From positions 2,112,001 through 2,176,000 of the forward strand of contig CAXXQS010000002.1 of assembly GCA_963674735.2 (NCBI GenBank): a stretch of DNA of 64,000 nucleotides, read 5' to 3'. Numbering within the stretch: the stretch's first letter is position 1; each line of letters opens with the position of its first letter. This DNA comes from Myxococcota bacterium. Its GTDB lineage: Bacteria; Myxococcota_A; SURF-8. The translations under genes and the position numbers were made by a program. The notes under the pieces are model-generated. The model worked only from the letters and a program-made list of their open reading frames with translations, did not search any database and was not told the origin of the DNA. Below, piece after piece: positions 12,555 to 25,441 of this stretch.

Positions 12555-15500
12555 TTACGGCAGGTCGATGGCGCAGCGGAAGCCGCTGGCGTAGGTCCAG
12601 TTCACCGTTCCTTCGGGCGGCAGGCTGAAACGGTTGGACAGGCGTAGTTCCACCGCTTCGGCGTAGAAGTTGCCGCCGCGCAGGCTGCGGTAGGTGCAGA
12701 CGCCGCCGCTTTCCGAGTAGCAGTCGGCGGTCCATTCCCACACATTGCCGAGCATGTCGTAAAGCCCGAAATCGTTGGGCAGCTTTTCGCCCACCGGGTG
12801 GGTGGCGAAAGAGGCGTTGTCCTGGTACCAGGCGATGGCGTCGAGGCAGCCGGCGTCGTCGCCGCAGCCGTAACGCGAGGTGGTTCCGGCGCGCGCGGCG
12901 TATTCCCATTCGGCTTCGCTGGGCAGACGCGCATCGAGGGCCGCGCAGAACGCCTGGGCCTGGCTCCAGGTCACGTTTTCCACCGGGCAATCGGGACAGC
13001 CGCCGAAGGTGCTGGGGTTGACGCCCATCACCAGCTCGAACTGTTCCTGCGTGATTTCGGTGGCGGTGAGATTGAAGCCGTCGCCCATGTACTGGGTCTG
13101 GCCCGCTTCGTCCGGCTCGCAGTCGGGGTCTTCGATGGAACAGCCCATGGCGAAGGAACCCGGACAGATATAGGCGTAGTCGAGTTCCACCAGCGGTCCG
13201 CTCTCATCTTCCACATCGCCATCTATCACGCTATCTTCATCGCCGTCAGTCGGTACGTCGCCGTCTGTGGGCACATCGCCGTCCGTTGGCACATCGCCGT
13301 CAGTCGGTACGTCGCCGTCTGTGGGCATGTCGCCGTCTGTGGGCACGTCGCCGTCAGTGGGCACGTCGCCGTCGGTTGGGACATCGCCGTCCGTTGGCAC
13401 GTCGCCATCTGTCGGGACGTCGCCATCTGTCGGGACATCGCCATCTGTCGGGACATCGCCGTCTGTGGGCACGTCGCCATCTGTCGGGACATCGCCATCT
13501 GTGGGCACGTCGCCGTCTGTGGGCACATCGCCATCTGTCGGGACGTCGCCGTCTGTGGGCACATCGCCATCTGTCGGGACGTCGCCGTCTGTGGGCACAT
13601 CGCCATCTGTCGGGACATCGCCGTCAGTTGGGACGTCGCCGTCCGTTGGCACGTCGCCGTCTGTGGGCACGTCGCCATCTGTCGGGACGTCGCCATCTGT
13701 GGGCACGTCGCCGTCAGTCGGTACGTCGCCGTCTGTGGGCACGTCGCCATCTGTCGGATCATCGCCATCTGTCGGGACATCGCCATCTGTCGGGACATCG
13801 CCGTCTGTGGGTACGTCGCCGTCAGTCGGTACGTCGCCATCTGTGGGTACGTCGCCGTCTGTGGGTACGTCGCCGTCGGTGGGGACATCGCCGTCTGTGG
13901 GCACGTCGCCGTCAGTCGGGACATCGCCATCTGTGGGTACATCGCCGTCGGTCGGGACATCGCCGTCGGGCTCGTCTCCGTCTATTGGAATGGATTGGGG
14001 CTCACGGGCGCAACGGAAACCGACGCCGTGTTCGTACACCTGCGCCGGGTTGCCGGCGGCCCGCGCCGAGGCGCGCATGGACCAGGTGTAGCAACCCCAA
14101 CAGCCGCCGCGCATCACGCGCTGCGAGCAGTCGCCACCCTCCCAGACGCCGCCATCGGACGGCGCGTCGCTGTAGTCGGGGTGCACGCAGTCGGCCGACC
14201 ATTCCCACACGTTGCCCAGCATGTCGTAAAAGCCCCAGTCATTGGGCGATTTCTGCGCCACTATGTGCGCGTCGGGGCCCTCGCTCCAGGCGATCTCGTC
14301 GAGGCAGGCGTAATCGTCGCCGCAATAAAAACGGGTGGAGGTGCCCGCCCGCGCGGCATATTCCCACTCGGCTTCGGAGGGCAGCCGCCCGCCCACGGAA
14401 CGGCAGAAGCGGTCGGCGTCGTACCAGGTGACGGCTTCCACCGGGCAGTTTCCGCAACCGTCGCTGAAGCTCGGGTGCCAGCCGATGACCTCTTCATATT
14501 GGGACATCGTGACTTCGGTGGCAAGCATTTCGAAAGCCGCTACCGAGACCGCGTGACGCGGTTCTTCGGAACCGGTGGGATGGCAGTCGGCATCGTTGAC
14601 CGAACAGCCCATCTGGAAGCCGCCGGCTGCAACCGGCAGCCAATCGAGGGCGACGTCGGTCACCACCTCGATTTCCTCATCCGTGTCGCCGTCCACATCG
14701 CCATCGGCATCCGGATGACACTCGGCCGGTTCGTCGGTGAGACCGTTGCAGTCGTTATCCAGGTCGTCGCAGATTTCCGCCACGCCCGGATGCACGGCGG
14801 GGTTGTTTTCGTCGCAATCGAGCAGGCCGGGGCAGTCGCCGAAGCCGTCGGCGTCGCGGTCGTTGCGGTCGTCGGCCACGCCGTTGCAGTCCCAGTCGAG
14901 ACCGTCGCAGCGCTCGGCTGCGGGCGAAAGGCCGCCCGTGCATTCAACCTCCACCGCGCAACTGGCCGCATCGATCGCGCAGGCATAGACGCCCGCCGCA
15001 TTGAGGCAGCGTCCGGCCGAGCCTTGGTAGCAGGACTGGGATTGCCCGACGCGCCAATAATCCGGATCGGCCATGCATAGCGCCAAGGGGTCGTGTTCGT
15101 CGGTCGCGCCGTCGCAATCGTTGTCCAACCCGTCGGAGCAGGTGGCGTCGTCGAGTGCGCCGAGGCCGCAGGCCGACACGGTTACAGGGCATTCGTCGGC
15201 GAGATAACCGGACGGGTAGGCGCAGATCCACAGGCCCGCCGAACAGACATTCTGCGCCGCGCCGTCGGCACAAATTCCGGCGGTCGGACAGCGGCTTTCC
15301 ACGGGCGCGTCCGAGCCCGGCAGCGCTTCATCGGTCTGGCCGTCGCAATCGTTATCGCGGTTGTCGCAGGTTTCAGCCGTCGGGCCGACAGCGCCGAGAC
15401 AGGGGCCCCAAGCCGCGTTGGCGCAGAGTTGCGTACCCGTGCTGCACAGGCCGGTGTCGCTGCCGCAACTGCGCGTGAGGTTCTCGTCGGTCTGGCCGTC

Positions 15501-17150
15501 GCAATCGTTGTCCAGTCCGTCGCAGTCTTCCACGCGCGGTCCGACGATGTCGCCCGTGCAGTCGCTCCAGCGGTTGTCGCTGCAGCTTTGCACGCCCGCG
15601 ACGCATTCGCCTTCGTTCGTGCCGCCACAGATGCGTTCGCTGCCGTTGGCGCATTCGAAGCCTTCGTCGGCCTGTCCGTCGCAGTCGTCGTCGCGCTGGT
15701 TGTAGACTTCTTCGCCCGGCGTACAGACCTGATCGAGGCAGGAGCCGCAGCTGCAGTCGTCGTCGCTGTCGCAGGAGCGCACCACCACGCCCTGAATGGC
15801 CAGCCCGCCGTAACCGTATTGGGCGATGAAATCGTAGGTGAACTGGCCGTAGCCGTTGTCGCCCCAATAGGGACTCCAGGAATTGAGGAAGGTGAAGCGG
15901 CGTGAGCTTTGATCGTAGCCGACGATTAAAATGGCGTGGCCGCCGTAGTAGCCGTCGCTGCCGGTCGGGACGTCGATCACGGTGTTGCGTCCCCACACCG
16001 ACCAGGCCGAGCCGTAAACCGGGACGCCGTAAATCACGTTCTGCCCGGCGGCCAGGGCGTCTTCGAGCTGGGAGATGCTACGGCCGTAAACATTGTAGGG
16101 GCCGACGCCGCGCAGGCGACCCAGGGCGTTTTCGTCGAATCCGCTCGGTGCTGATTGCAGCCATCCGATGCAGGAATTACCCGATGCGTAGCCGCTGCAG
16201 TCGTAGGTCCAGGCCTCGTCGGTGACGAGGTAGCGCGAACCGGTGACGGCCGTCACCACGCGCGAGAGATAGGTGCCGTCGGTGCAGGAGAGCGAGAGGC
16301 CCGCCATCGACCAGGCATGAGTTTGCGAAAGATCGGTATTGGTGGAGAGGCTTTCGACCTGCAACGCTTCGAGCCCGTGGACCGTGGCGAAAGCCACGCA
16401 GGTGCCGCAGGCGCCCTGATCGTCGGCCTGGCCGAGCCCATCATCCAAATACTCGCTACGATGATCGACCGCGCTCGGAACGGACAAGGTTGGTTCGCTC
16501 GCTCCGCCGATTTTGGGAAAATACAGCGGAGGCGCATCGCCCAGCGGATTGCCCGGCGGCAGGCAGACGCTGCGTCCGTTGCCGATGTCGAAGGGATTGC
16601 AGCCCGGCGCGGGCGGATCGTCCAGACAGTGTAATTCGTAATCGTAAAAGCCGTCGGGGCACTCGCAGAAGGGTCGGTCGGCTTCGTCGACGAAGCATTC
16701 GCCCACGCCGCAATCAACGCCCTGGCAGGGGTCGGCGGCGTCGTTTGGGACGCAGGCCAGTTTGCGCGCGTGATAGCCGGGCAGGCACAGGCAGGCGGGT
16801 TGTTCGTCGATGACGACACAACGCCCCCAACCGGAGCAAAAAACACCCATGCAAAGATCGTCGCGGACCGCCGCCTCGATCGGATCGTCCGTCGCCGGTC
16901 CCGGATCGACGAGGTCGCTGTCGGTTTCGCTGACGGCCTCGAAATCGCCGTCGCCGCTGATTTCGTCATCGGAATCGCCGTCGAGCGGCACGCAATTTCC
17001 CGAGGCGTCGTCGAAACGTTCGCCCGCCAGGCAAAGACCCGCATCGAAATCGCCGAAATCGCCGCCCAGCGGGCCCGACGAACAGGCTGCCAACAGGCTC
17101 ATGACGATTAAAAGCGATGTGAAATCAGTGATGTAAGAGCGAATCGGCAT
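12555..17150 (-). CDS. Giant multidomain lipoprotein: EGF-like repeats, papain-family C1 peptidase, CDGLDNDCDG (MopE-type) repeats, two FGE/SUMF1 domains
   Basis: Lipobox LAAC; DQGACGTC, GGHAILIVGYD, NSWSPYWGDNGY; two copies of RLPSEAEWEYAARAG...DMLGNVWEW...RGG...GFRC. Confidence 0.9.
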   Translation of the reverse strand: MPIRSYITDFTSLLIVMSLLAACSSGPLGGDFGDFDAGLCLAGERFDDASGNCVPLDGDSDDEISGDGDFEAVSETDSDLVDPGPATDDPIEAAVRDDLCMGVFCSGWGRCVVIDEQPACLCLPGYHARKLACVPNDAADPCQGVDCGVGECFVDEADRPFCECPDGFYDYELHCLDDPPAPGCNPFDIGNGRSVCLPPGNPLGDAPPLYFPKIGGASEPTLSVPSAVDHRSEYLDDGLGQADDQGACGTCVAFATVHGLEALQVESLSTNTDLSQTHAWSMAGLSLSCTDGTYLSRVVTAVTGSRYLVTDEAWTYDCSGYASGNSCIGWLQSAPSGFDENALGRLRGVGPYNVYGRSISQLEDALAAGQNVIYGVPVYGSAWSVWGRNTVIDVPTGSDGYYGGHAILIVGYDQSSRRFTFLNSWSPYWGDNGYGQFTYDFIAQYGYGGLAIQGVVVRSCDSDDDCSCGSCLDQVCTPGEEVYNQRDDDCDGQADEGFECANGSERICGGTNEGECVAGVQSCSDNRWSDCTGDIVGPRVEDCDGLDNDCDGQTDENLTRSCGSDTGLCSTGTQLCANAAWGPCLGAVGPTAETCDNRDNDCDGQTDEALPGSDAPVESRCPTAGICADGAAQNVCSAGLWICAYPSGYLADECPVTVSACGLGALDDATCSDGLDNDCDGATDEHDPLALCMADPDYWRVGQSQSCYQGSAGRCLNAAGVYACAIDAASCAVEVECTGGLSPAAERCDGLDWDCNGVADDRNDRDADGFGDCPGLLDCDENNPAVHPGVAEICDDLDNDCNGLTDEPAECHPDADGDVDGDTDEEIEVVTDVALDWLPVAAGGFQMGCSVNDADCHPTGSEEPRHAVSVAAFEMLATEVTMSQYEEVIGWHPSFSDGCGNCPVEAVTWYDADRFCRSVGGRLPSEAEWEYAARAGTSTRFYCGDDYACLDEIAWSEGPDAHIVAQKSPNDWGFYDMLGNVWEWSADCVHPDYSDAPSDGGVWEGGDCSQRVMRGGCWGCYTWSMRASARAAGNPAQVYEHGVGFRCAREPQSIPIDGDEPDGDVPTDGDVPTDGDVPTDGDVPTDGDVPTDGDVPTDGDVPTDGDVPTDGDVPTDGDVPTDGDVPTDGDDPTDGDVPTDGDVPTDGDVPTDGDVPTDGDVPTDGDVPTDGDVPTDGDVPTDGDVPTDGDVPTDGDVPTDGDVPTDGDVPTDGDVPTDGDVPTDGDVPTDGDVPTDGDVPTDGDVPTDGDVPTDGDVPTDGDVPTDGDVPTDGDMPTDGDVPTDGDVPTDGDVPTDGDVPTDGDEDSVIDGDVEDESGPLVELDYAYICPGSFAMGCSIEDPDCEPDEAGQTQYMGDGFNLTATEITQEQFELVMGVNPSTFGGCPDCPVENVTWSQAQAFCAALDARLPSEAEWEYAARAGTTSRYGCGDDAGCLDAIAWYQDNASFATHPVGEKLPNDFGLYDMLGNVWEWTADCYSESGGVCTYRSLRGGNFYAEAVELRLSNRFSLPPEGTVNWTYASGFRCAIDLP
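13248..13967 (-). repeat. Coding 18-bp tandem array, 40 units of DGDVPT
   Basis: 720 bp parsed into 40 units; only two non-synonymous variants (DGDMPT, DGDDPT). Confidence 0.97.
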
Positions 17151-18056: not shown

Positions 18057-19574
18057 TCAGGCCGATTCCGGAGCGGTCTCCTCCGATCGGGTCGGGTCGT
18101 CGCCGGGCGGGTCGTCGTGGCCCGAAGCATCGTCGTCATCATGGTCGGACAACACCTCGACGCCATCGCCGCCCTGGATGATTTTCTTGAAGAACAGGAT
18201 CAAAAGCGGTGAGGAGATGGTCATCAAGCCGATGACGAACCACATGATTTCGCCCTGACACGTGGTGTGCGCCACCACGCCTTCGCAGGCGCCCTCCATC
18301 AATTCGCCGTCGCAGGTGGGCGTTTGCGGACAATAGCCCGCCAGCATGTAACCCGACATGCCGCCGACCATGAGCTTGGCGACGAACATCGGCGCGGCGG
18401 AAAGCGCCATATAGCTGCCCTCGCGGCCTTTGGGTGCGATCATGGCTGTATATTCATACAAACGTGGCGACCAGAACGCCTCGCCCACCGAGAGCACGAC
18501 CACAAACGCAATGGCGGCCCAGTAGGGCGTGATGAAATCGAACGCGCTGCGGGCGCTCGGTCCCAGGCACAGGAAAAACACCGACAGTGACGAAATCAGG
18601 GTGCCGTACACGATCATTTTGAAGGCCGAAACCTTCGCGGTAAAGGCCGTAACCAGCGGCACGATGAAGATGATCAGGAAGGGATTGATGCCGATAATCG
18701 TGCCCCAGGGCGCACCCATGCCGAATTCCCGCTCCATGTATTTTGGAAACGTGGCGTCCATGTGGCGGAAAATAAAGCGTACGCCGATGAGCAGAACGAT
18801 GAATAAGAGGAAGCGCCAGAAACGCGAGGTGGAGGCGATTTCCCACATGATCTGCCAGGGCGCACCCGTTTTGGGTTTGAACTTTTTGGCCTGGCCCTCG
18901 CTGGAGACGTCGATTTCACGCACGAAAAATATCGAGACGATCAGCATCAAGAACGTGGCGATGGTGCCGGTAAACAGAATCAGGCGGTAGTGGGACAAAT
19001 GCGTGGGAGCCATCAGACCCAGGAAATCCGTATCGATCCCCGCTTCGAAGGTGTATTTGAACGCGTCGACCAGCGGCGCGGCCAACAGCGCCGCGATGTT
19101 CATCATGACGTAGAACAGGGAAAAGCCGAAGGAGCGATTCGAGTCGTTGGTGTAGCGGCGAATGCCGGTCATCATGACCGGAATGCCGAGCGCCGTGCCG
19201 ATCGGTAAAATGGTATACAACATCGCCGACATGACGAAGGTACTGTCGGTGACCGTCATGATGAAGCGGCTGATCAGAAGCAGCACCGCCCCCAAAATCA
19301 GGGACCGCCGCACCCCCATGTTGTCGATGACGAAGCCGATCAGAAGCCCGTATACCGAAATCAGCATGCCGAACAGGCCGTAAGCCCAGCCCGCCTCGAT
19401 ATCGCTGAAGCCGAACTCGCGACTGAGGTAGAGAACCAGGATATAGGCCATGGAGAAATAGGCGTAACTCTCCAGAAATTTTAAGAAATAGACGATCCAT
19501 AGTTCACGTGGAGCGCCTTTGAGAACCGTGAATTTTTGTAGAAAGCCCTGCTCGGCCGTCTCGGTCTGACTCAT
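18057..19574 (-). CDS. MFS transporter, proton-dependent oligopeptide (POT/PTR)-like
   Basis: KFLESYAYF (ExxER-like), GFSLFYVMMNI, INP, GEAFWSPR, APKGREGSY; RBS GGAGGT before ATG 19574. Confidence 0.82.
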   Translation of the reverse strand: MSQTETAEQGFLQKFTVLKGAPRELWIVYFLKFLESYAYFSMAYILVLYLSREFGFSDIEAGWAYGLFGMLISVYGLLIGFVIDNMGVRRSLILGAVLLLISRFIMTVTDSTFVMSAMLYTILPIGTALGIPVMMTGIRRYTNDSNRSFGFSLFYVMMNIAALLAAPLVDAFKYTFEAGIDTDFLGLMAPTHLSHYRLILFTGTIATFLMLIVSIFFVREIDVSSEGQAKKFKPKTGAPWQIMWEIASTSRFWRFLLFIVLLIGVRFIFRHMDATFPKYMEREFGMGAPWGTIIGINPFLIIFIVPLVTAFTAKVSAFKMIVYGTLISSLSVFFLCLGPSARSAFDFITPYWAAIAFVVVLSVGEAFWSPRLYEYTAMIAPKGREGSYMALSAAPMFVAKLMVGGMSGYMLAGYCPQTPTCDGELMEGACEGVVAHTTCQGEIMWFVIGLMTISSPLLILFFKKIIQGGDGVEVLSDHDDDDASGHDDPPGDDPTRSEETAPESA

Positions 19575-19789
19575 GAAACCTCCGCGATGATGGGTGACGG
19601 TTCCATCCAGCTGTGAACATCTGGGACACAAACACCGGCTGCTTCCGGGGTTTGGGATATGGATCGAACCGCCAGAACTTTAGCGAAAATGGAGGTAAGG
19701 GTCAACCTTTTTCGGAAGCATCCCCATCGACAGGCTGGGAAAGCGCAGGCGGGAGTTGGCACGCGTCTCCGGCGGGCGCCGGACGGCGA

Positions 19790-20311
19790 TCATCTGGAAT
19801 TTCGCCGGATTCGTTGGATCTCCTTCTCATCAAGGCCCAAGGAACGCAGAAAATCGTGATGACAGCTTCCCGACAGTTTTTCAAAACCGCAATGCCAGCG
19901 TTGCATTCCCGCTTCATCGAGACCGGACGTGCGAAGAAGCTCGATCCACTGCTCTTTATTCATGACCTGGCCGCTCGCGCTTTTATTATCCTCTTTTAAA
20001 ATACCGACAATCACTTGCTGTTGTCGGCGCAGCGATCCGATTTCCTCATTTAAATCCGACAATCGTTTTTCAAGCGTTGCAAAGTAACTGACGGGACTTC
20101 GTTCTTCAAGTAAGCGCTGAATGTCGGATAACGATAATCCGGCCTCGCGATAGCGACAGATTCGGTGCAAGCGATCCATATCCCGCTTTTCATAAATCCG
20201 GTAACCCGCTTCACTTCGTTTCGACGGGCAAAGCAAGCCGATTGAATCGTAGTACAAAAGCGTGCTGCGAGACAGTCCGAATTCACCTGCCAATTTTCCG
20301 ATGCTGGCCAT
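19790..20311 (-). CDS. MerR-family transcriptional regulator
   Basis: SIGKLAGEFGLSRSTLLYYDSIGLL, GYRIY, GLSLSDI, coiled coil, small His-containing C-terminal domain. Confidence 0.95.
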   Translation of the reverse strand: MASIGKLAGEFGLSRSTLLYYDSIGLLCPSKRSEAGYRIYEKRDMDRLHRICRYREAGLSLSDIQRLLEERSPVSYFATLEKRLSDLNEEIGSLRRQQQVIVGILKEDNKSASGQVMNKEQWIELLRTSGLDEAGMQRWHCGFEKLSGSCHHDFLRSLGLDEKEIQRIRRNSR

Positions 20312-20333
20312 ATTTTCACCTGAAACGTCAACG

Positions 20334-20356
20334 AAAAGGCGGGGTCCGAAGACCCC
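20334..20356 (-). terminator. UUCG hairpin, weak terminator/attenuator between small ORF and merR
   Basis: Minus strand GGGGTC-TTCG-GACCCC-GCC-TTTT. Confidence 0.6.
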
Positions 20357-20375
20357 TATCGAGTGTCAGACCGAG

Positions 20376-20552
20376 TTACTTCGAGCTATCCCGAATGCGT
20401 CCGATCTCCTCGGCGTCAATCCCGAGAAGTTCGAGAAATTCCTGATGGTCTTCGCCGGAGAGCTTTTCGAATTCCCGATGGAATCTGTTCAGTCCTTCCG
20501 TATCCAAGCCGGTTTTCTTCAATAAGGTTTTCCATTGTTCCTTGTTTAGCAT
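20376..20552 (-). CDS. 58-aa stand-alone paralogue of the MerR C-terminal domain
   Basis: RBS AAAGGA before ATG 20552; 31/57 identities, ungapped by hand, to the last 57 aa of the adjacent MerR. Confidence 0.88.
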   Translation of the reverse strand: MLNKEQWKTLLKKTGLDTEGLNRFHREFEKLSGEDHQEFLELLGIDAEEIGRIRDSSK

Positions 20553-20677
20553 CGTGGTTTCCTTTTTGCGAATTCGTGTGTGCGGGCGATTGGGGCGTCC
20601 CCGGCACGGCGGCACACACATGGGTTTTACATGGCTGTCCGTCTCGCTCGATGATCATCAGCCGCGATTCGAAAAGC

Positions 20678-20708
20678 AGGCTAAACTATGAAGTTATAGA
20701 CAGGTCAA
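20678..20708 (-). promoter_or_regulatory. MerR-type sigma70 promoter with 19-bp spacer and dyad operator
   Basis: TTGACC-tgtctataacttcatagtt(19)-TAGCCT; imperfect dyad CTAT-N6-ATAG inside the spacer. Confidence 0.8.
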
Positions 20709-20850: not shown

Positions 20851-21696
20851 TTACCAGCCGCAGCCGCGTTCGTACAGATCGTCACCGGCGGCCTGCAGTT
20901 CGTCCCACCAAAAGGTCCACTGGTCGCGGGCGCGCCGGGCGAACTCGGCCACGTCTGTGTCGTCTTCCGCCGCCTGTTGCATCCACTTGCTGTCGAGGTC
21001 GAGGGTGCCGGTGGCGTTGCCGAGTCCCGGTACGCGGGTTGAAAGTCGCGGAACATTCGGCGCCTCGGCCCAGCGGTCGTCGTCGGGCATGGGCAGCAGG
21101 CCCGGCAGGTCGGACCAGGCTTCGATGAAGGTCATTTCCCCCTGGTCGTTGAAGGTGAATTCTTCATAGATCGGGCAGGGTCGGCCATCGTATTCGAAAA
21201 CGATGTAGCAACGTCCGAAGGGCTGGACGGCGAAGGCACGGCAGTCGCGTTCGGGTACGGTTGATGGGTCGAAGCGGCGCAAAATCGCGGCAGTCGATTC
21301 CATCGTCTCCTTGCCATAACCGGTCAACAGCAGCCAGGGCGGCCACTCCCAGCGGGCCACCAAAGCCGAATAATTCGGGACGCTTTCCGGGTCGGCTTCG
21401 ACATCGAGCGTGTCGAAATATTTCAGGCTTTGCTCGATGTAGTATTCGGGCGGCATGGTGGGCGTCAGGCAGGCGGAGCTGGCACCGGGGGTGCCGACGT
21501 TGCGGCAGGACGAGGTGTCTGCGTCCCCGTCACCGTCTACGACGTCGTCCCCATTATCGATCGGATCTGCATCCAGGTCGACCGAATCACGGTCGCCGTC
21601 GGAGGGTGCATCGCCGTCGGTGGCGGATGGGTCGTCACCGCCGCAGCCGAGAAGCAGAAGCCCGATCAGAACAAGCACGAAGCTAGCGTGTCGCAT
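20851..21696 (-). CDS. Lipoprotein with DGD acidic linker and unknown aromatic-rich domain
   Basis: MRHASF...LLGC lipobox, DGD linker, C-terminal domain with ARWEWPPW. Confidence 0.8.
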   Translation of the reverse strand: MRHASFVLVLIGLLLLGCGGDDPSATDGDAPSDGDRDSVDLDADPIDNGDDVVDGDGDADTSSCRNVGTPGASSACLTPTMPPEYYIEQSLKYFDTLDVEADPESVPNYSALVARWEWPPWLLLTGYGKETMESTAAILRRFDPSTVPERDCRAFAVQPFGRCYIVFEYDGRPCPIYEEFTFNDQGEMTFIEAWSDLPGLLPMPDDDRWAEAPNVPRLSTRVPGLGNATGTLDLDSKWMQQAAEDDTDVAEFARRARDQWTFWWDELQAAGDDLYERGCGW

Positions 21697-21991
21697 GGTT
21701 GGTCTCGCGAATTTTGGGTGCGTAATCAAAACGACTGCTGAATCAGACTTCGCCAGATTACCATAGCTATATCGCTCAGGCAATGCCTTGCCATTTCTAT
21801 TGTACGCTGTTTCTCAATTTCCGGAATCCACCATCGCCCGTCCTGCTCGGTTCGTTTTTCGTCAAACAAGGCTCCTGCCTTGTTTTCGGCGGAATCGGTT
21901 CAGGTGAAAAAGGCAAGACACCATGCGGAGCAGAACAAAGCCCTGTTCCTGTTCAAAGAAAAACACAGCAATCCAGCTGCGGTACGCGATG

Positions 21992-23383
21992 TCACGCGTT
22001 GAGCGCCGGTTTTCGCAATTTGTAGAAGATCCGCAGAGATAAGGCCGTTCCCAAAACGGCGGTGGCGCAGAATCCAAGCAGGATCAGCTGCATGGCCTGG
22101 TTGAACGCGGGAAACGACGCGGCGTTCAAAACCTGATCGCCGACCTTGTAGGCAAGGGCCATGGAAATCGCCACCATGCCGGTGGTCATCCCCAAGGTGC
22201 GCATCTGTCCGGTGACGGCCGTCGCCACCCCGTTTTGTTCCGTCCGAATCGAACTCATGATCAGATTCATATTCGGGGCGGCGAATAGCGCGATGCCCAA
22301 TCCCAGGATTCCAAGCACCAGCATCACCGATAAAATGGGGGTATCGAGATTGAAGGTCGAGGCCCAGCCGAGGCCCACCACGTTCAAGAGCATGCCGCCG
22401 GTAACCAGCGGACCGGACGAAAAGCGGTCTGCCAGACGACCGCAAAGCGGCGATAACGCACTTTGAATGAGGGGTTGGATCACCAAGATCCGCCCCGCCG
22501 TGGCCGGGCTCATGCCGTGTCCGAATTGCAGATACAGGCTCATCAGGAAGGTCATGCCGAAGGTGGAGGAGTAATTGAAAAACTGCAGCAGATTGCCGTT
22601 GCGGAAGGTCGCGTTGCTTCGGAACAGGTTCAAGTCCAGCAGCGGATACGGCTTTTGCGATTCCAGCTTCAGAAACACGATCAGGGCGACGACCGAAATT
22701 CCGATCAGCGGCAGTCCGAGCGCGTTATTCATATTGGCTCCGCCGATCACGAACAGACCGATGGTCAACATGCTCACGAAGGTGCCGGTCCAGTCGAAGG
22801 GATCGACCGAGCGGCGAAAGTCCCGTTCGATGATGGTGAAACCCATAAACAGGGCGCTGAAGCAGGGAATGGCGCCCAGAAAGAACACCCACCGCCAGCC
22901 CCAGGCGTGCGTGATGAGTCCGCCCAAAAACGGACCCGCCGAGATACCCAGATAGACGCCGGCCAGCGCGATGCCCAAAACGCGGCCTCGTTTTTGCGGG
23001 GGAAATCCCTCGATCAGGATCGCCAGGCTGCTCGACATCTGCATGGCGCCTCCGAAGGCCTGGACCGCCCGGACCGCGATAAGCGCTTCGATGCTTTGGG
23101 TAAACCCCAGCGCGACGGTCGCCAGGGAGAAAATCGTCAATCCGCCCAGAAAGATCCAGGCGCGCCCGATCATGTCCGACGCCCTTCCGAAGACGAGGAC
23201 GCACATGGCCGATACGCCGAGGAAAACGGATTCCACCAGGCTCAGGGTCACGCCGTCCGCCGCGAATTCCCGCCCGATGACCGGCAAGGCCACCCCGACG
23301 GAGGAAATCATGAACGGCACGGCAAACTGGGCCGAGGTGACGGCGAAGATCAGCATCCATCTTTTTGACTGCTGGTCCGTCAT
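21992..23383 (-). CDS. MFS efflux transporter (DHA2, EmrB/QacA-like)
   Basis: VALPVIGREF, GRASDMIGR, RAVQAFGGA, GPFLGG, WRWVF, PLLDLNLF; ATGA overlap with marR. Confidence 0.92.
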   Translation of the reverse strand: MTDQQSKRWMLIFAVTSAQFAVPFMISSVGVALPVIGREFAADGVTLSLVESVFLGVSAMCVLVFGRASDMIGRAWIFLGGLTIFSLATVALGFTQSIEALIAVRAVQAFGGAMQMSSSLAILIEGFPPQKRGRVLGIALAGVYLGISAGPFLGGLITHAWGWRWVFFLGAIPCFSALFMGFTIIERDFRRSVDPFDWTGTFVSMLTIGLFVIGGANMNNALGLPLIGISVVALIVFLKLESQKPYPLLDLNLFRSNATFRNGNLLQFFNYSSTFGMTFLMSLYLQFGHGMSPATAGRILVIQPLIQSALSPLCGRLADRFSSGPLVTGGMLLNVVGLGWASTFNLDTPILSVMLVLGILGLGIALFAAPNMNLIMSSIRTEQNGVATAVTGQMRTLGMTTGMVAISMALAYKVGDQVLNAASFPAFNQAMQLILLGFCATAVLGTALSLRIFYKLRKPALNA

Positions 23384-23844
23384 GCCTTGACCGCCTCGGT
23401 CGCCGCACGCAGGTTCGCAATCAAGCGGTCGAGCATGTCCAAACACAGCGTGCGTTCCTGTCGGCTGAAACCGGCGAACAAGGTGTCGTTATGGGCGCTC
23501 AGCAGGGCCACCAGGGAATCTTGCAACGCGCGGGCTTTGTCGGTGGGGTAGACGCGTTTGCGCCGTCGGTCTTGCGCATCTTCTTCGCGCCGAATCAGGC
23601 CGTCATGTTCCAGGTCGAACAGGGCACGGGCGGTGGCGGCGCGGTCGATGCACAGGGCGCGGGTCAGATCTTCCTGAATGATGCCTTCCCGGCGCAGGAC
23701 GCCCATCAAAAAGCCGATTTTCCCCCGTGCGATATTCAGCTTCCCCAACGGCTCGGCCAGGTAGGCCATGCTCAGGCGATGCAGCATGCTCAAACGGCGG
23801 CCCGGGGATTGTTCCTCGAAGTCAGTCATATTTTTGTGTGTCAT
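23380..23844 (-). CDS. MarR-family transcriptional regulator
   Basis: GIIQEDL...IDRAATARALFDLEHDGLIRR...DRRRKRVYPTDKA; start could also be 23829. Confidence 0.93.
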   Translation of the reverse strand: MTHKNMTDFEEQSPGRRLSMLHRLSMAYLAEPLGKLNIARGKIGFLMGVLRREGIIQEDLTRALCIDRAATARALFDLEHDGLIRREEDAQDRRRKRVYPTDKARALQDSLVALLSAHNDTLFAGFSRQERTLCLDMLDRLIANLRAATEAVKA

Positions 23845-24235: not shown

Positions 24236-25441
24236 ATGGCTTTTATTAAAGATTCATCATCAGATTATTATGAGCCAATGACATCGGAAGAATTCCGCTC
24301 TTTTTACCGTAATGGTCGACGAGAATTTGTAAATATTAGCTTTTTGGATGTTGAACTTGAGAACTTTGATAATATTGAATCAGTAGTATTTTCTAATTGC
24401 ATATTTGAGTCGGTAAAATTTGAGCAACAAATAATTAGGAATCTACGTTTTAAAAATTGTCGCTTTAGTAAAACAAACTTTAATAATAGCCAGTTAAGAG
24501 TATTCTTTCAGGATTGTATTTGTGAGCACCTAAATTTCAAGGCTGACGGCAATGCACTAATAATATTTTATGATAGTCAAATTGACCAGATGTCTTATGC
24601 GGGCAATTTGCGTATTATAGTATGCAAAGGAAAGGTTAAAAAATTAACGATCAAAAACATGTCCGATGTTTCTGCATCACGATTTTCAAATTGCAATATA
24701 GAACGTTTTGAATTTCAAGAAGGAGCAATGTGTAACACTCAATTTGTCTATTCAGAATTACATGAGTTGCGTCTAAAAAAAATAAACCTATCAGGAAGCA
24801 AATTCAAACATTGCACACTCAATATTCTAAACTTTAAAAATATTATTAGCTATGATTACGTTGAATTTGTTAAGTCATCTTTTTCTACAACCATTTTTAC
24901 TACGCCTTTTAATTCACCCATATATCAAGACATACCCTGCAATGGTATCAAACTGGTAGACAATAACGGAGGATTAGAATTTCAGCGTTATCTAAAAACT
25001 CAAGCCTATATAAATGAGTTTGCGAGCCAACACTCCTTTTCAGCTAGCGTCTGGCGTTGGACTTCATGTTACGGCCAATCATTGCTTCTCATTTTAGCCT
25101 GGGCAACACTGTTCTCAATTGGTTTTGGTTTTATTTATCATCTCAATATTACGAGTCTTAATTTTCCAGAGAGTGATCAGGCATGCTATTATCTAAACTA
25201 TGAACTTTTAGGACCGAGGAGTGAAGCTCAAGAAAAAATATTTTCTTCTGTAAATTGCAGGTTTTTCTGGATCAACTCTTATTATTTTAGTTTTGTGACA
25301 TTTACGACACTTGGATATGGTGACATAACAGGAAAAACAATTCCAATACGAATCATTGTTATTCTTGAGTCCTTTTTGGGATATTTCCTTTTGGGGATGA
25401 CTTTGGGTGTAATGGTCAATAAATTTATTGTTAGGCCATAA
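24236..25441 (+). CDS. Pentapeptide-repeat beta-helix protein fused to a 2-TM K+ channel pore (Ion_trans_2-like)
   Basis: FxNCxF periodic repeats; YFSFVTFTTLGYGD filter between two TM helices. Confidence 0.88.
   Translation: MAFIKDSSSDYYEPMTSEEFRSFYRNGRREFVNISFLDVELENFDNIESVVFSNCIFESVKFEQQIIRNLRFKNCRFSKTNFNNSQLRVFFQDCICEHLNFKADGNALIIFYDSQIDQMSYAGNLRIIVCKGKVKKLTIKNMSDVSASRFSNCNIERFEFQEGAMCNTQFVYSELHELRLKKINLSGSKFKHCTLNILNFKNIISYDYVEFVKSSFSTTIFTTPFNSPIYQDIPCNGIKLVDNNGGLEFQRYLKTQAYINEFASQHSFSASVWRWTSCYGQSLLLILAWATLFSIGFGFIYHLNITSLNFPESDQACYYLNYELLGPRSEAQEKIFSSVNCRFFWINSYYFSFVTFTTLGYGDITGKTIPIRIIVILESFLGYFLLGMTLGVMVNKFIVRP

Follow-up and report, generated by a model that had tools for sequence, protein, structure and literature searches.

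Why would the gene for a MerR-family regulator be directly preceded by a second gene that encodes little more than a copy of the regulator's own C-terminal domain? The question is raised by a locus in a 64,000-nt stretch of contig CAXXQS010000002.1 (the window; all coordinates are window positions). On the minus strand, an open reading frame (ORF) of 58 codons (20376-20552; protein P0001) lies 64 nt upstream of merR (19790-20311; protein P0002, 173 aa; Pfam MerR_1, E 9e-18), and a sequence that reads as a MerR-type promoter with its operator (20678-20708) lies upstream of both. We found that this layout is a recurrent, unannotated cassette that is not unique to the window. Our preferred answer is that the locus is a self-regulated circuit like TipAL/TipAS, split into two genes, in which the free domain would buffer the inducer. 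We hold this reading tentatively, at slightly less than even confidence.

The small protein is a paralog of the MerR tail. By BLASTP, P0001 aligned without gaps to residues 116-173 of P0002 (encoded at 19790-19966, minus strand), with 31/58 identities and 42/58 positives (E 3e-20). A first-pass annotation of this DNA had described the same gapless relationship with a count of 31/57. It had also taken the small ORF to be the first ORF behind the promoter, and had noted that two cysteines of the regulator (in WHC and SCH) are missing from the free copy. Our reading of the sequence and of both translations agrees on each point: Cys141 and Cys150 of P0002 adjoin His140 and His151, two histidines that are invariant in the domain family, and P0001 contains no Cys. 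The small ORF has an AAGGA 7 nt ahead of its ATG. AlphaFold2 modeled P0001 as four helices (residues 4-13, 18-32, 34-42 and 47-57) with high confidence (predicted local distance difference test, pLDDT, 95.9).

The larger protein has the architecture of a MerR regulator with an unfamiliar tail. Residues 1-101 of P0002 match the Pfam models MerR_1 (E 9.2e-18, 64.6 bits, cut-off 21.6), MerR (E 2.1e-11) and MerR-DNA-bind (E 1e-7), and the protein is assigned from its sequence to the MerR family, with a predicted N-terminal winged helix-turn-helix (HTH) of the MerR type. In the AlphaFold2 model (pLDDT 92.5), the HTH is followed by a long helix (residues 73-108), the putative dimerisation helix of a dimer that is itself a prediction, then by a linker of approximately 10 residues (pLDDT 72-76) and by the C-terminal domain (residues 119-172; helices 119-128, 133-146, 148-157 and 162-172). 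The closest solved relatives of the family's N-terminal part are TipAN (2vz4, E 6.8e-21), MtaN and SkgA. In a profile search of the PDB, the TipA and SkgA matches spanned only the N-terminal ~110 positions, and no solved chain covered the tail. P0002 scored far below the NCBIfam equivalog cut-offs (best 51-57 bits vs 143-168; ZntR 56.9 vs 143, CueR 53.4 vs 147.4). The TipAS model was not among the Pfam matches of P0001 or P0002 at E<=1, and PADLOC matched only the MerR HTH (mad1) and left the small proteins unmatched.

We found the two-gene layout in distant genomes. We scanned one genome per species with a 7-sequence alignment, which gave 219 relatives, and analysed the 80 loci most like the window's small protein. 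In 17 of these 80 loci, a profile search of six-frame ORFs detected two copies of the domain, one of them in a small ORF immediately ahead of merR and in the same orientation; this frequency is biased, because the loci were ranked by likeness to the window's small protein. The pairs occur in Betaproteobacteria (Sulfuricella, Rhodocyclaceae, Azoarcus and a betaproteobacterial metagenome-assembled genome, MAG), in Gammaproteobacteria (Stutzerimonas, Competibacteraceae, Chromatiales and a gammaproteobacterial MAG), in Nitrospirales and in eight Verrucomicrobiota. The order is the same in each: operator-promoter, small gene, stem-loop, merR. Because it recurs in other genomes, the whole arrangement is more than chance. 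Each of five checked genomes contains one such locus. In the family of one carrier (an Opitutaceae MAG, locus L077), 22 of 151 genomes have the domain, as an adjacent pair (17), as two copies on different contigs (3) or as one match (2). The domain is rare in the window's own phylum (6/401 genomes, including the window's), and none of five sampled members of the window's family has it.

The promoter is conserved together with the genes. On the minus strand it consists of TTGACC (20708-20703), a 19-nt spacer and TAGCCT (20683-20678), where the first-pass annotation had placed it. Spacers of 19-20 bp have been described for MerR promoters (PMC8113463), and the segment reads as a MerR-type promoter whose over-long spacer carries the operator. 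Nine proteobacterial and Nitrospirota pairs have almost every base of this 31-nt sequence ahead of the small ORF, sharing TTGACC, yGTCTAT, CTT and a -10 element after 19 nt. In the eight verrucomicrobial pairs the site is a variant organised around GGTGA...TCACC. When 62 unique sites were compared, the best-conserved part was the left half, TTGACCTGTCTA.

To score these sites, we built a position weight matrix from operator sites read in the sequences and used 40 shuffled loci as a control. The window site scored 41.6 bits (shuffled maximum, 11.6 bits), and a site above 13 bits was present on the merR strand, upstream of merR, in 67/80 loci. A 22-nt operator pattern, with up to three mismatches allowed, matched the window's 5.26-Mb genome only once, and the reversed-pattern control did not match at all. 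The operon therefore looks like its own regulon, in line with the first-pass interpretation.

What lies between the site and merR varies from locus to locus. In 47 of the 80 loci, the operator precedes merR alone (6-140 nt from the -10 element to merR, mostly 10-30 nt), so that in these loci, as in tipA, the regulator seems to have no target but itself. In the 17 loci with a small domain gene in between, the distance is approximately 290-510 nt (14 of the 17 have a located site). An SRPBCC-like ORF of ~160 aa takes this place in four loci (L017, L019, L028, in which it is broken, and L047; 528-643 nt), and an EamA transporter gene in another four (L043 and L087 by inspection, L072 and L093 by the same spacing; 912-973 nt). 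No distance applies in eight loci, which have no detected site, lie on cut contigs or carry a solitary free copy (L058). The site of L004 is directed at an SRPBCC-like gene in divergent orientation. The alternative first genes encode proteins of kinds that bind (SRPBCC-like) or export (EamA) small molecules. In single-gene loci such as L021, L025, L029, L038, L039, L048 and ~40 more, the -10 element ends 6-30 nt before the merR start, and judging from that spacing their merR mRNAs would be leaderless or nearly so.

A stem-loop separates the two genes. A terminator scan reported it at 20331-20356 (minus strand): the hairpin GGGGTC-UUCG-GACCCC (20356-20341) with the tail GCCUUUUCGU. Its 6 pairs, 5 of them G-C, and its tail, GCCTTTTCGT, are within the limits of the scan, for which the chance expectation in the region is 1.8 sites. 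It is a candidate partial terminator or 3' stabiliser. In all 17 other pairs the small ORF's stop codon is immediately followed by a GC-rich stem-loop, although the U-tract is good in only a part of them (for example, L065 and L054).

Upstream of the small gene, the predicted 5' leader is ~119 nt long (20553-20671, minus strand; its start is inferred from the position of the -10 element). It holds a 13-nt inverted repeat (20576-20588 and 20607-20619), and as a whole it folds no better than shuffled sequences (z 0.1). In minimum-energy folds, 13 of 14 pairs with a located promoter form a stem of 6-9 bp no more than a few nucleotides away from the predicted 5' end; these stems are weak individually (z -0.4 to -4.2). 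The 5'-end palindrome of the small-gene mRNA reads CTGACGGC...GCCGTCAG, or GTCGGC...GCCGAC in Verrucomicrobiota (L022 3357-3377, L041, L024, L050, L064, L077 and other pairs). It could be a stabilising stem or a second protein-binding site.

The domain that the two proteins share belongs to a large family without a name. The MerR tail matched no Pfam or NCBIfam family above threshold. A word-based protein search had found only P0003, P0004 and P0005 (one free relative and two MerRs), which would have suggested that the domain is rare. A profile built from eight sequences and searched against 1.84 billion protein representatives corrected that impression: it matched 700 representative clusters at E<=1e-3 (465 at E<=1e-10), with free as well as MerR-fused forms among them. 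Among the 150 matches listed were many MerRs of ~170-215 aa with the domain at the C terminus, many fragments, some two dozen free proteins of 58-78 aa and a few fusions to S-adenosylmethionine methyltransferases. Stand-alone copies, for which the first-pass annotation had suggested such a search, are therefore found, including some next to merR behind promoters with 19-nt spacers. Seven records in a plasmid collection are all fused forms, four of them annotated as 'MerR family transcriptional regulator' and three without a listed feature. One protein (P0049, 240 aa) joins an SRPBCC-like part to the domain; it contains an internally duplicated stretch and may be a misassembly. We considered an internal translation start in the fused genes and set it aside as unsupported. 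A Met is common at the domain boundary there, but it is kept inside free proteins that start five residues earlier and is therefore probably structural.

Both histidines singled out in the first-pass annotation proved to be invariant. His25, Phe28, Glu29 and His36 (P0001 numbering) are present in 122 of 122 domain sequences, free and fused, and Trp24, Pro33, Phe39, Leu40 and Leu43 are nearly invariant. In the model, His25 and Glu29 are one helical turn apart and His36 follows a tight turn at position 33. Judging from this placement in the secondary structure, and not from distances, the three residues could form one site.

Fold searches with the P0001 model returned nothing that names the domain, and these null results exclude no structural family. 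Foldseek against the PDB gave 0 matches at E<=0.001, as did the viral library BFVD. VIA-align against 48,161 chains gave a best Z of 4.2, with no chain at Z>=5 and 370 at Z>=2. The ESM Atlas returned solely unnamed clusters of ~60-aa hypothetical proteins (score 0.90). NCBIfam had nothing for five free proteins or three SRPBCC-like proteins; one free protein had only a chance-level match, to an M20 peptidase model (E 0.004, 15.9 bits, cut-off 503).

Some of these data could instead indicate an independent small protein, an adaptor or effector that acts on a separate target; a methyltransferase, an SRPBCC-like protein, RNA polymerase and nucleic acid are candidates. MerR would only set its level, and the MerR tail would meet the same partner through the shared domain. 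Two of the representatives join the domain to a methyltransferase (P0014, 434 aa, MerR plus domain plus methyltransferase; P0129, 212 aa, domain plus methyltransferase), and the verrucomicrobial pairs L046, L052 and L077 have a methyltransferase gene 1.0-1.1 kb downstream in the opposite orientation. There is also a weak, non-significant likeness to interaction domains of the sterile alpha motif (SAM) type: the best match of the domain in the PDB profile search was the SHD2 domain of Sla1 (3idw, E 0.016), and VIA-align gave Z 3.7 for KSR1 CC-SAM and 2.9 for both 3idw and ASK3 SAM. These structural likenesses are at noise level, the neighbours of the pairs vary with no partner gene recurring across phyla, and the checked genomes have only the one locus each. 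We consider an independent adaptor or effector improbable.

Is the window's small ORF a working gene at all? It might be a functionless relic, decaying since a partial duplication or the truncation of a merR. P0001 is most similar to fused domains: it is 67% identical to that of a Hydrogenedentota MerR (P0004, locus L015), compared to 53% for its own neighbour and 36-45% for the free proteins of the other pairs. A solitary fused-type free copy does exist elsewhere. This is a 62-aa domain (L058 3995-4180, plus strand) behind a degenerate operator, with no merR on that strand of the locus, and it looks like a MerR stripped of its DNA-binding part. In the window, however, the frame is intact with all four invariant residues in place, the ORF has its own ribosome-binding site, the model is confident, and the ORF occupies exactly the slot, between the same promoter and a following stem-loop, that it occupies in the 17 other loci. 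Relative to its nearest relative, its nonsynonymous divergence (dN) is 0.29 at saturated synonymous divergence (dS). The small ORFs of other loci are mostly under purifying selection, with dN/dS of 0.10-0.31 in the 12 computable of 15 proteobacterial comparisons, 0.08 for L037/L069 and 0.08-1.54 in 28 verrucomicrobial comparisons. These data support the view that the short form is a separate, genuine gene, as first proposed, and we regard a functionless leftover as extremely improbable. One other locus in the same phylum may be a decayed pair or an assembly error (L003 1049-1686, minus strand, genome G258). There, a 68-aa ORF of the free subfamily is followed by a merR whose HTH frame is broken after ~60 residues, and the C-terminal domain of that merR was not found anywhere in the genome scan.

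The free copy in the window may have a history different from that of its counterparts. A quick tree of poor resolution grouped the 17 pairs' small proteins with 11 metagenomic free proteins (SH-aLRT 83), and this free subfamily carries motifs of its own across phyla (RYP before and FLEW after the second His). P0001 instead clusters with fused domains from Hydrogenedentota (SH-aLRT 82). Hydrogenedentota MerRs are also the closest to the N-terminal part of the window MerR (56-57%), and Gly33 is found only in the two window copies and those MerRs (6/122 sequences, one of them duplicating L015). An approximately unbiased (AU) test did not reject P0001 inside the free subfamily (p 0.73; the constrained tree was better by 17 log-likelihood units); the tested group was named after the tree had been seen, and the tree decides nothing on independent origin. 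The sequence similarities suggest that the window's free copy was made within its lineage, or that gene conversion has occurred.

How might the two genes work together? From the paralogy, the anatomy, the recurrence and the conserved cis-acting elements, which we observed, we infer the following circuit. One MerR-type promoter would transcribe the small gene and then, past the stem-loop, merR. The stem-loop would probably stop or stabilise part of the transcripts, giving a high ratio of small protein to MerR. MerR would sit on its own promoter and activate it once the tail domain meets the inducer. The main product would be the free domain, whose identical His25-Glu29-His36 face would bind the same signal and lower the concentration of free inducer, providing both protection and negative feedback. 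The locus would then be a self-contained module that senses a compound and removes it. We prefer to read it in this way because a single operator fronts the regulator's own operon and because the first gene encodes a copy of the tail, an SRPBCC-like protein or an exporter.

Several of our results weigh against this circuit. The internal dyad reported in the first-pass annotation is weak: it is merely CTAT (20699-20696) and ATAG (20689-20686), 4 bp with a 6-nt gap. Over the 62 unique related sites, central complementarity never exceeded 37%, and overall symmetry was weak. The hairpin claimed in the same annotation does have the position and the short U-tract described. Folded alone, however, it reached only -12.8 kcal/mol (z -1.46), and 19 of 200 shuffled sequences folded equally well, so the hairpin by itself is not above chance. 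Its stem of 6 bp followed by four U was also not the preferred structure when the whole intergenic stretch was folded, and the window leader, which is longer than those of the other pairs, lacks their 5'-terminal hairpin. Some verrucomicrobial comparisons of small ORFs gave dN/dS of 0.75-1.54, all at dS <0.2. A 57-aa four-helix domain leaves little room for a pocket. The free copy and the sensor tail are only 53% identical, and Cys residues flank both invariant His in the sensor alone; therefore, the two may not bind the same thing. Finally, the signature and separate grouping of the free subfamily suggest a specialised role and not that of a plain extra sensor copy.

The last points make a mechanism by protein contact a strong rival: the free subfamily has its own signature, the sensor has extra cysteines, and the domain is tiny. 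The free domain might be an anti-activator or co-regulator that binds MerR itself, pairing with the tethered tail or docking where the tail docks, and so capping or re-tuning the activator in a negative feedback at the protein level. The cross-phylum motifs of the free copies would then mark a specialised interaction surface. The tail, on its low-confidence linker (30-60 residues in some relatives), would be a tethered module able to pair, and the pair is inherited as a unit, as in 17 of the 22 positive genomes of the one family. The cysteines that the window sensor has and its free copy lacks fit this view as well. On the other hand, the residues invariant in free and fused copies alike (His25, Glu29, His36) fit a small partner shared by both and are not needed for capping, and the SRPBCC-like and EamA proteins that can take the same slot handle small molecules and are not regulators. 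A complex prediction (two P0002 plus one P0001, own alignments) gave ipSAE values of 0.01 and 0.00 against a mark of 0.32; it was made without controls and is evidence neither way. On balance, we consider regulation by contact unlikely, though a possibility to be taken seriously.

Inducer buffering, which we still prefer, and protein contact could also operate together. The locus would then belong to a large TipA-related MerR clade, defined by the unannotated four-helix domain, whose only regulon is its own operon and whose output is the sensor domain. A signal of the metal or tetrapyrrole type would bind between two domains, and the free copy would be sponge and cap at once. The two-gene form would need at least two origins: one that gave the old free subfamily of Proteobacteria, Nitrospirota and Verrucomicrobiota, and another in the window lineage by copying of its own fused domain. 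We think it quite unlikely that all of these statements hold together.

On the minus strand, the order of the genes around the pair is a gene for a transporter of the major facilitator superfamily (MFS; 21992-23446, 484 aa, from the ORF list and Pfam), a gene for a 310-aa protein with no match in a Pfam scan (20851-21783), a gap of 300 nt, the small ORF, merR and a second MFS transporter gene (18057-19631; Pfam MFS_1, E 1.5e-26). Whether the latter, at a distance of ~215 nt, is a member of the merR unit is uncertain. A sigma-70-like site of its own (TTGACC-17-TAAAGT, 19705-19677, minus strand) lies between it and merR, and no MFS gene was present among the Pfam-scanned neighbours of related loci (107 of 169 called neighbour ORFs scanned). 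Its start is likelier to be the ATG at 19574, which is preceded by GGAGG, than the TTG at 19631. Farther away, the window encodes a 1531-aa protein with Peptidase_C1 (papain-type) and FGE-sulfatase domains and a putative metal-binding motif of the MopE type (12555-17150, minus strand), and a 401-aa protein in which pentapeptide repeats are fused to an Ion_trans_2 ion-channel pore domain (24236-25441, plus strand).

There are hints that the cassette moves horizontally. The small gene and merR have a GC content of 0.48-0.49, lower than that of the flanking genes (0.57-0.62) and of the window (0.59), and 3 of the 17 pairs have mobile or defence genes as neighbours: an integrase gene and Abi_C (L022 1017-2850), AbiEii and a DruA-Tn5 transposase fusion (L036 2094-3038 and 4319-6616), and GmrSD and RiboL-PSP HEPN (L050 1947-3786). 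We dropped a toxin-antitoxin or defence role, as the neighbours vary and no toxin-like partner recurs.

The logic of the proposed circuit has precedents. tipA is induced by its own product and a free drug-binding form captures the inducer, with AlbA as a similar case (PMC6078987). As in TipAL/TipAS of Streptomyces lividans and AlbAL/AlbAS of Klebsiella oxytoca, a MerR-family activator is predicted to induce its own gene, and the same locus yields a product without the DNA-binding domain that would capture the inducer. A 19-bp promoter spacer is shared with tipA, and the N-terminal domain is nearest to TipAN. The differences are in the construction. In those systems the short form comes from an internal in-frame start; here it is encoded by a gene of its own, which lies upstream, has its own start and is followed by a stem-loop. 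The domain is a four-helix unit unlike TipAS by Pfam, and the free and fused copies have diverged, forming separate subfamilies in the other pairs.

Two other groups of proteins are comparable in part. The Cass2/GyrI-like modules, relatives of the BmrR C terminus, are also encoded by independent genes that hold only the effector-binding module of a MerR- or AraC-type regulator; drug binding has been proposed for Cass2, as has, more tentatively, complex formation with regulators (PMC3048380). Cass2, however, is a beta-barrel of unrelated sequence on an integron cassette, and is neither in the operon of a cognate regulator nor under its promoter. The metal-sensing MerRs (CueR, ZntR, MerR and CadR) have the same winged HTH and dimerisation helix, a long-spacer promoter and, as suspected here, residues of a metal-binding type. 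They bind metal at the end of the dimerisation helix via Cys loops. In contrast, the invariant His, Glu and His of the present family are on a separate, tethered helical domain, and the operon slot of the Pfam-scanned loci contains no P-type ATPase or other usual metal-resistance gene.

Thus, the logic (TipA, AlbA) and the existence of free effector modules (Cass2) were already known. What is new is the domain itself, its arrangement in two genes with a conserved promoter and stem-loop, and its distribution over several phyla: the domain is absent from Pfam, NCBIfam, PADLOC and the PDB, and a full-text literature search, whose coverage leaves aside supplements and subscription journals, returned no account of the domain or of the layout.

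MerR regulators are a textbook example of one-component sensing, with TipAL/TipAS as the classic system in which the sensor domain serves as the resistance product. The locus described here appears to build TipA-like logic from two genes, with a different, very small and nameless domain that is found in hundreds of clusters and several phyla, and it exposes a gap in domain libraries. If our preferred reading is confirmed, the family would provide a new sensor domain, in which the candidate site is sharply defined (His-x3-Glu, then His seven residues on). Cultured carriers are at hand for the pair (Stutzerimonas sp. S1, Azoarcus taiwanensis NSC3 and Opitutaceae bacterium EW11) and for the single-gene form (Aliivibrio fischeri ES114). 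The family would also show a natural way to build feedback from a free sensor copy, one that could be compared with loci in which the same promoter drives an SRPBCC-like protein or an exporter.

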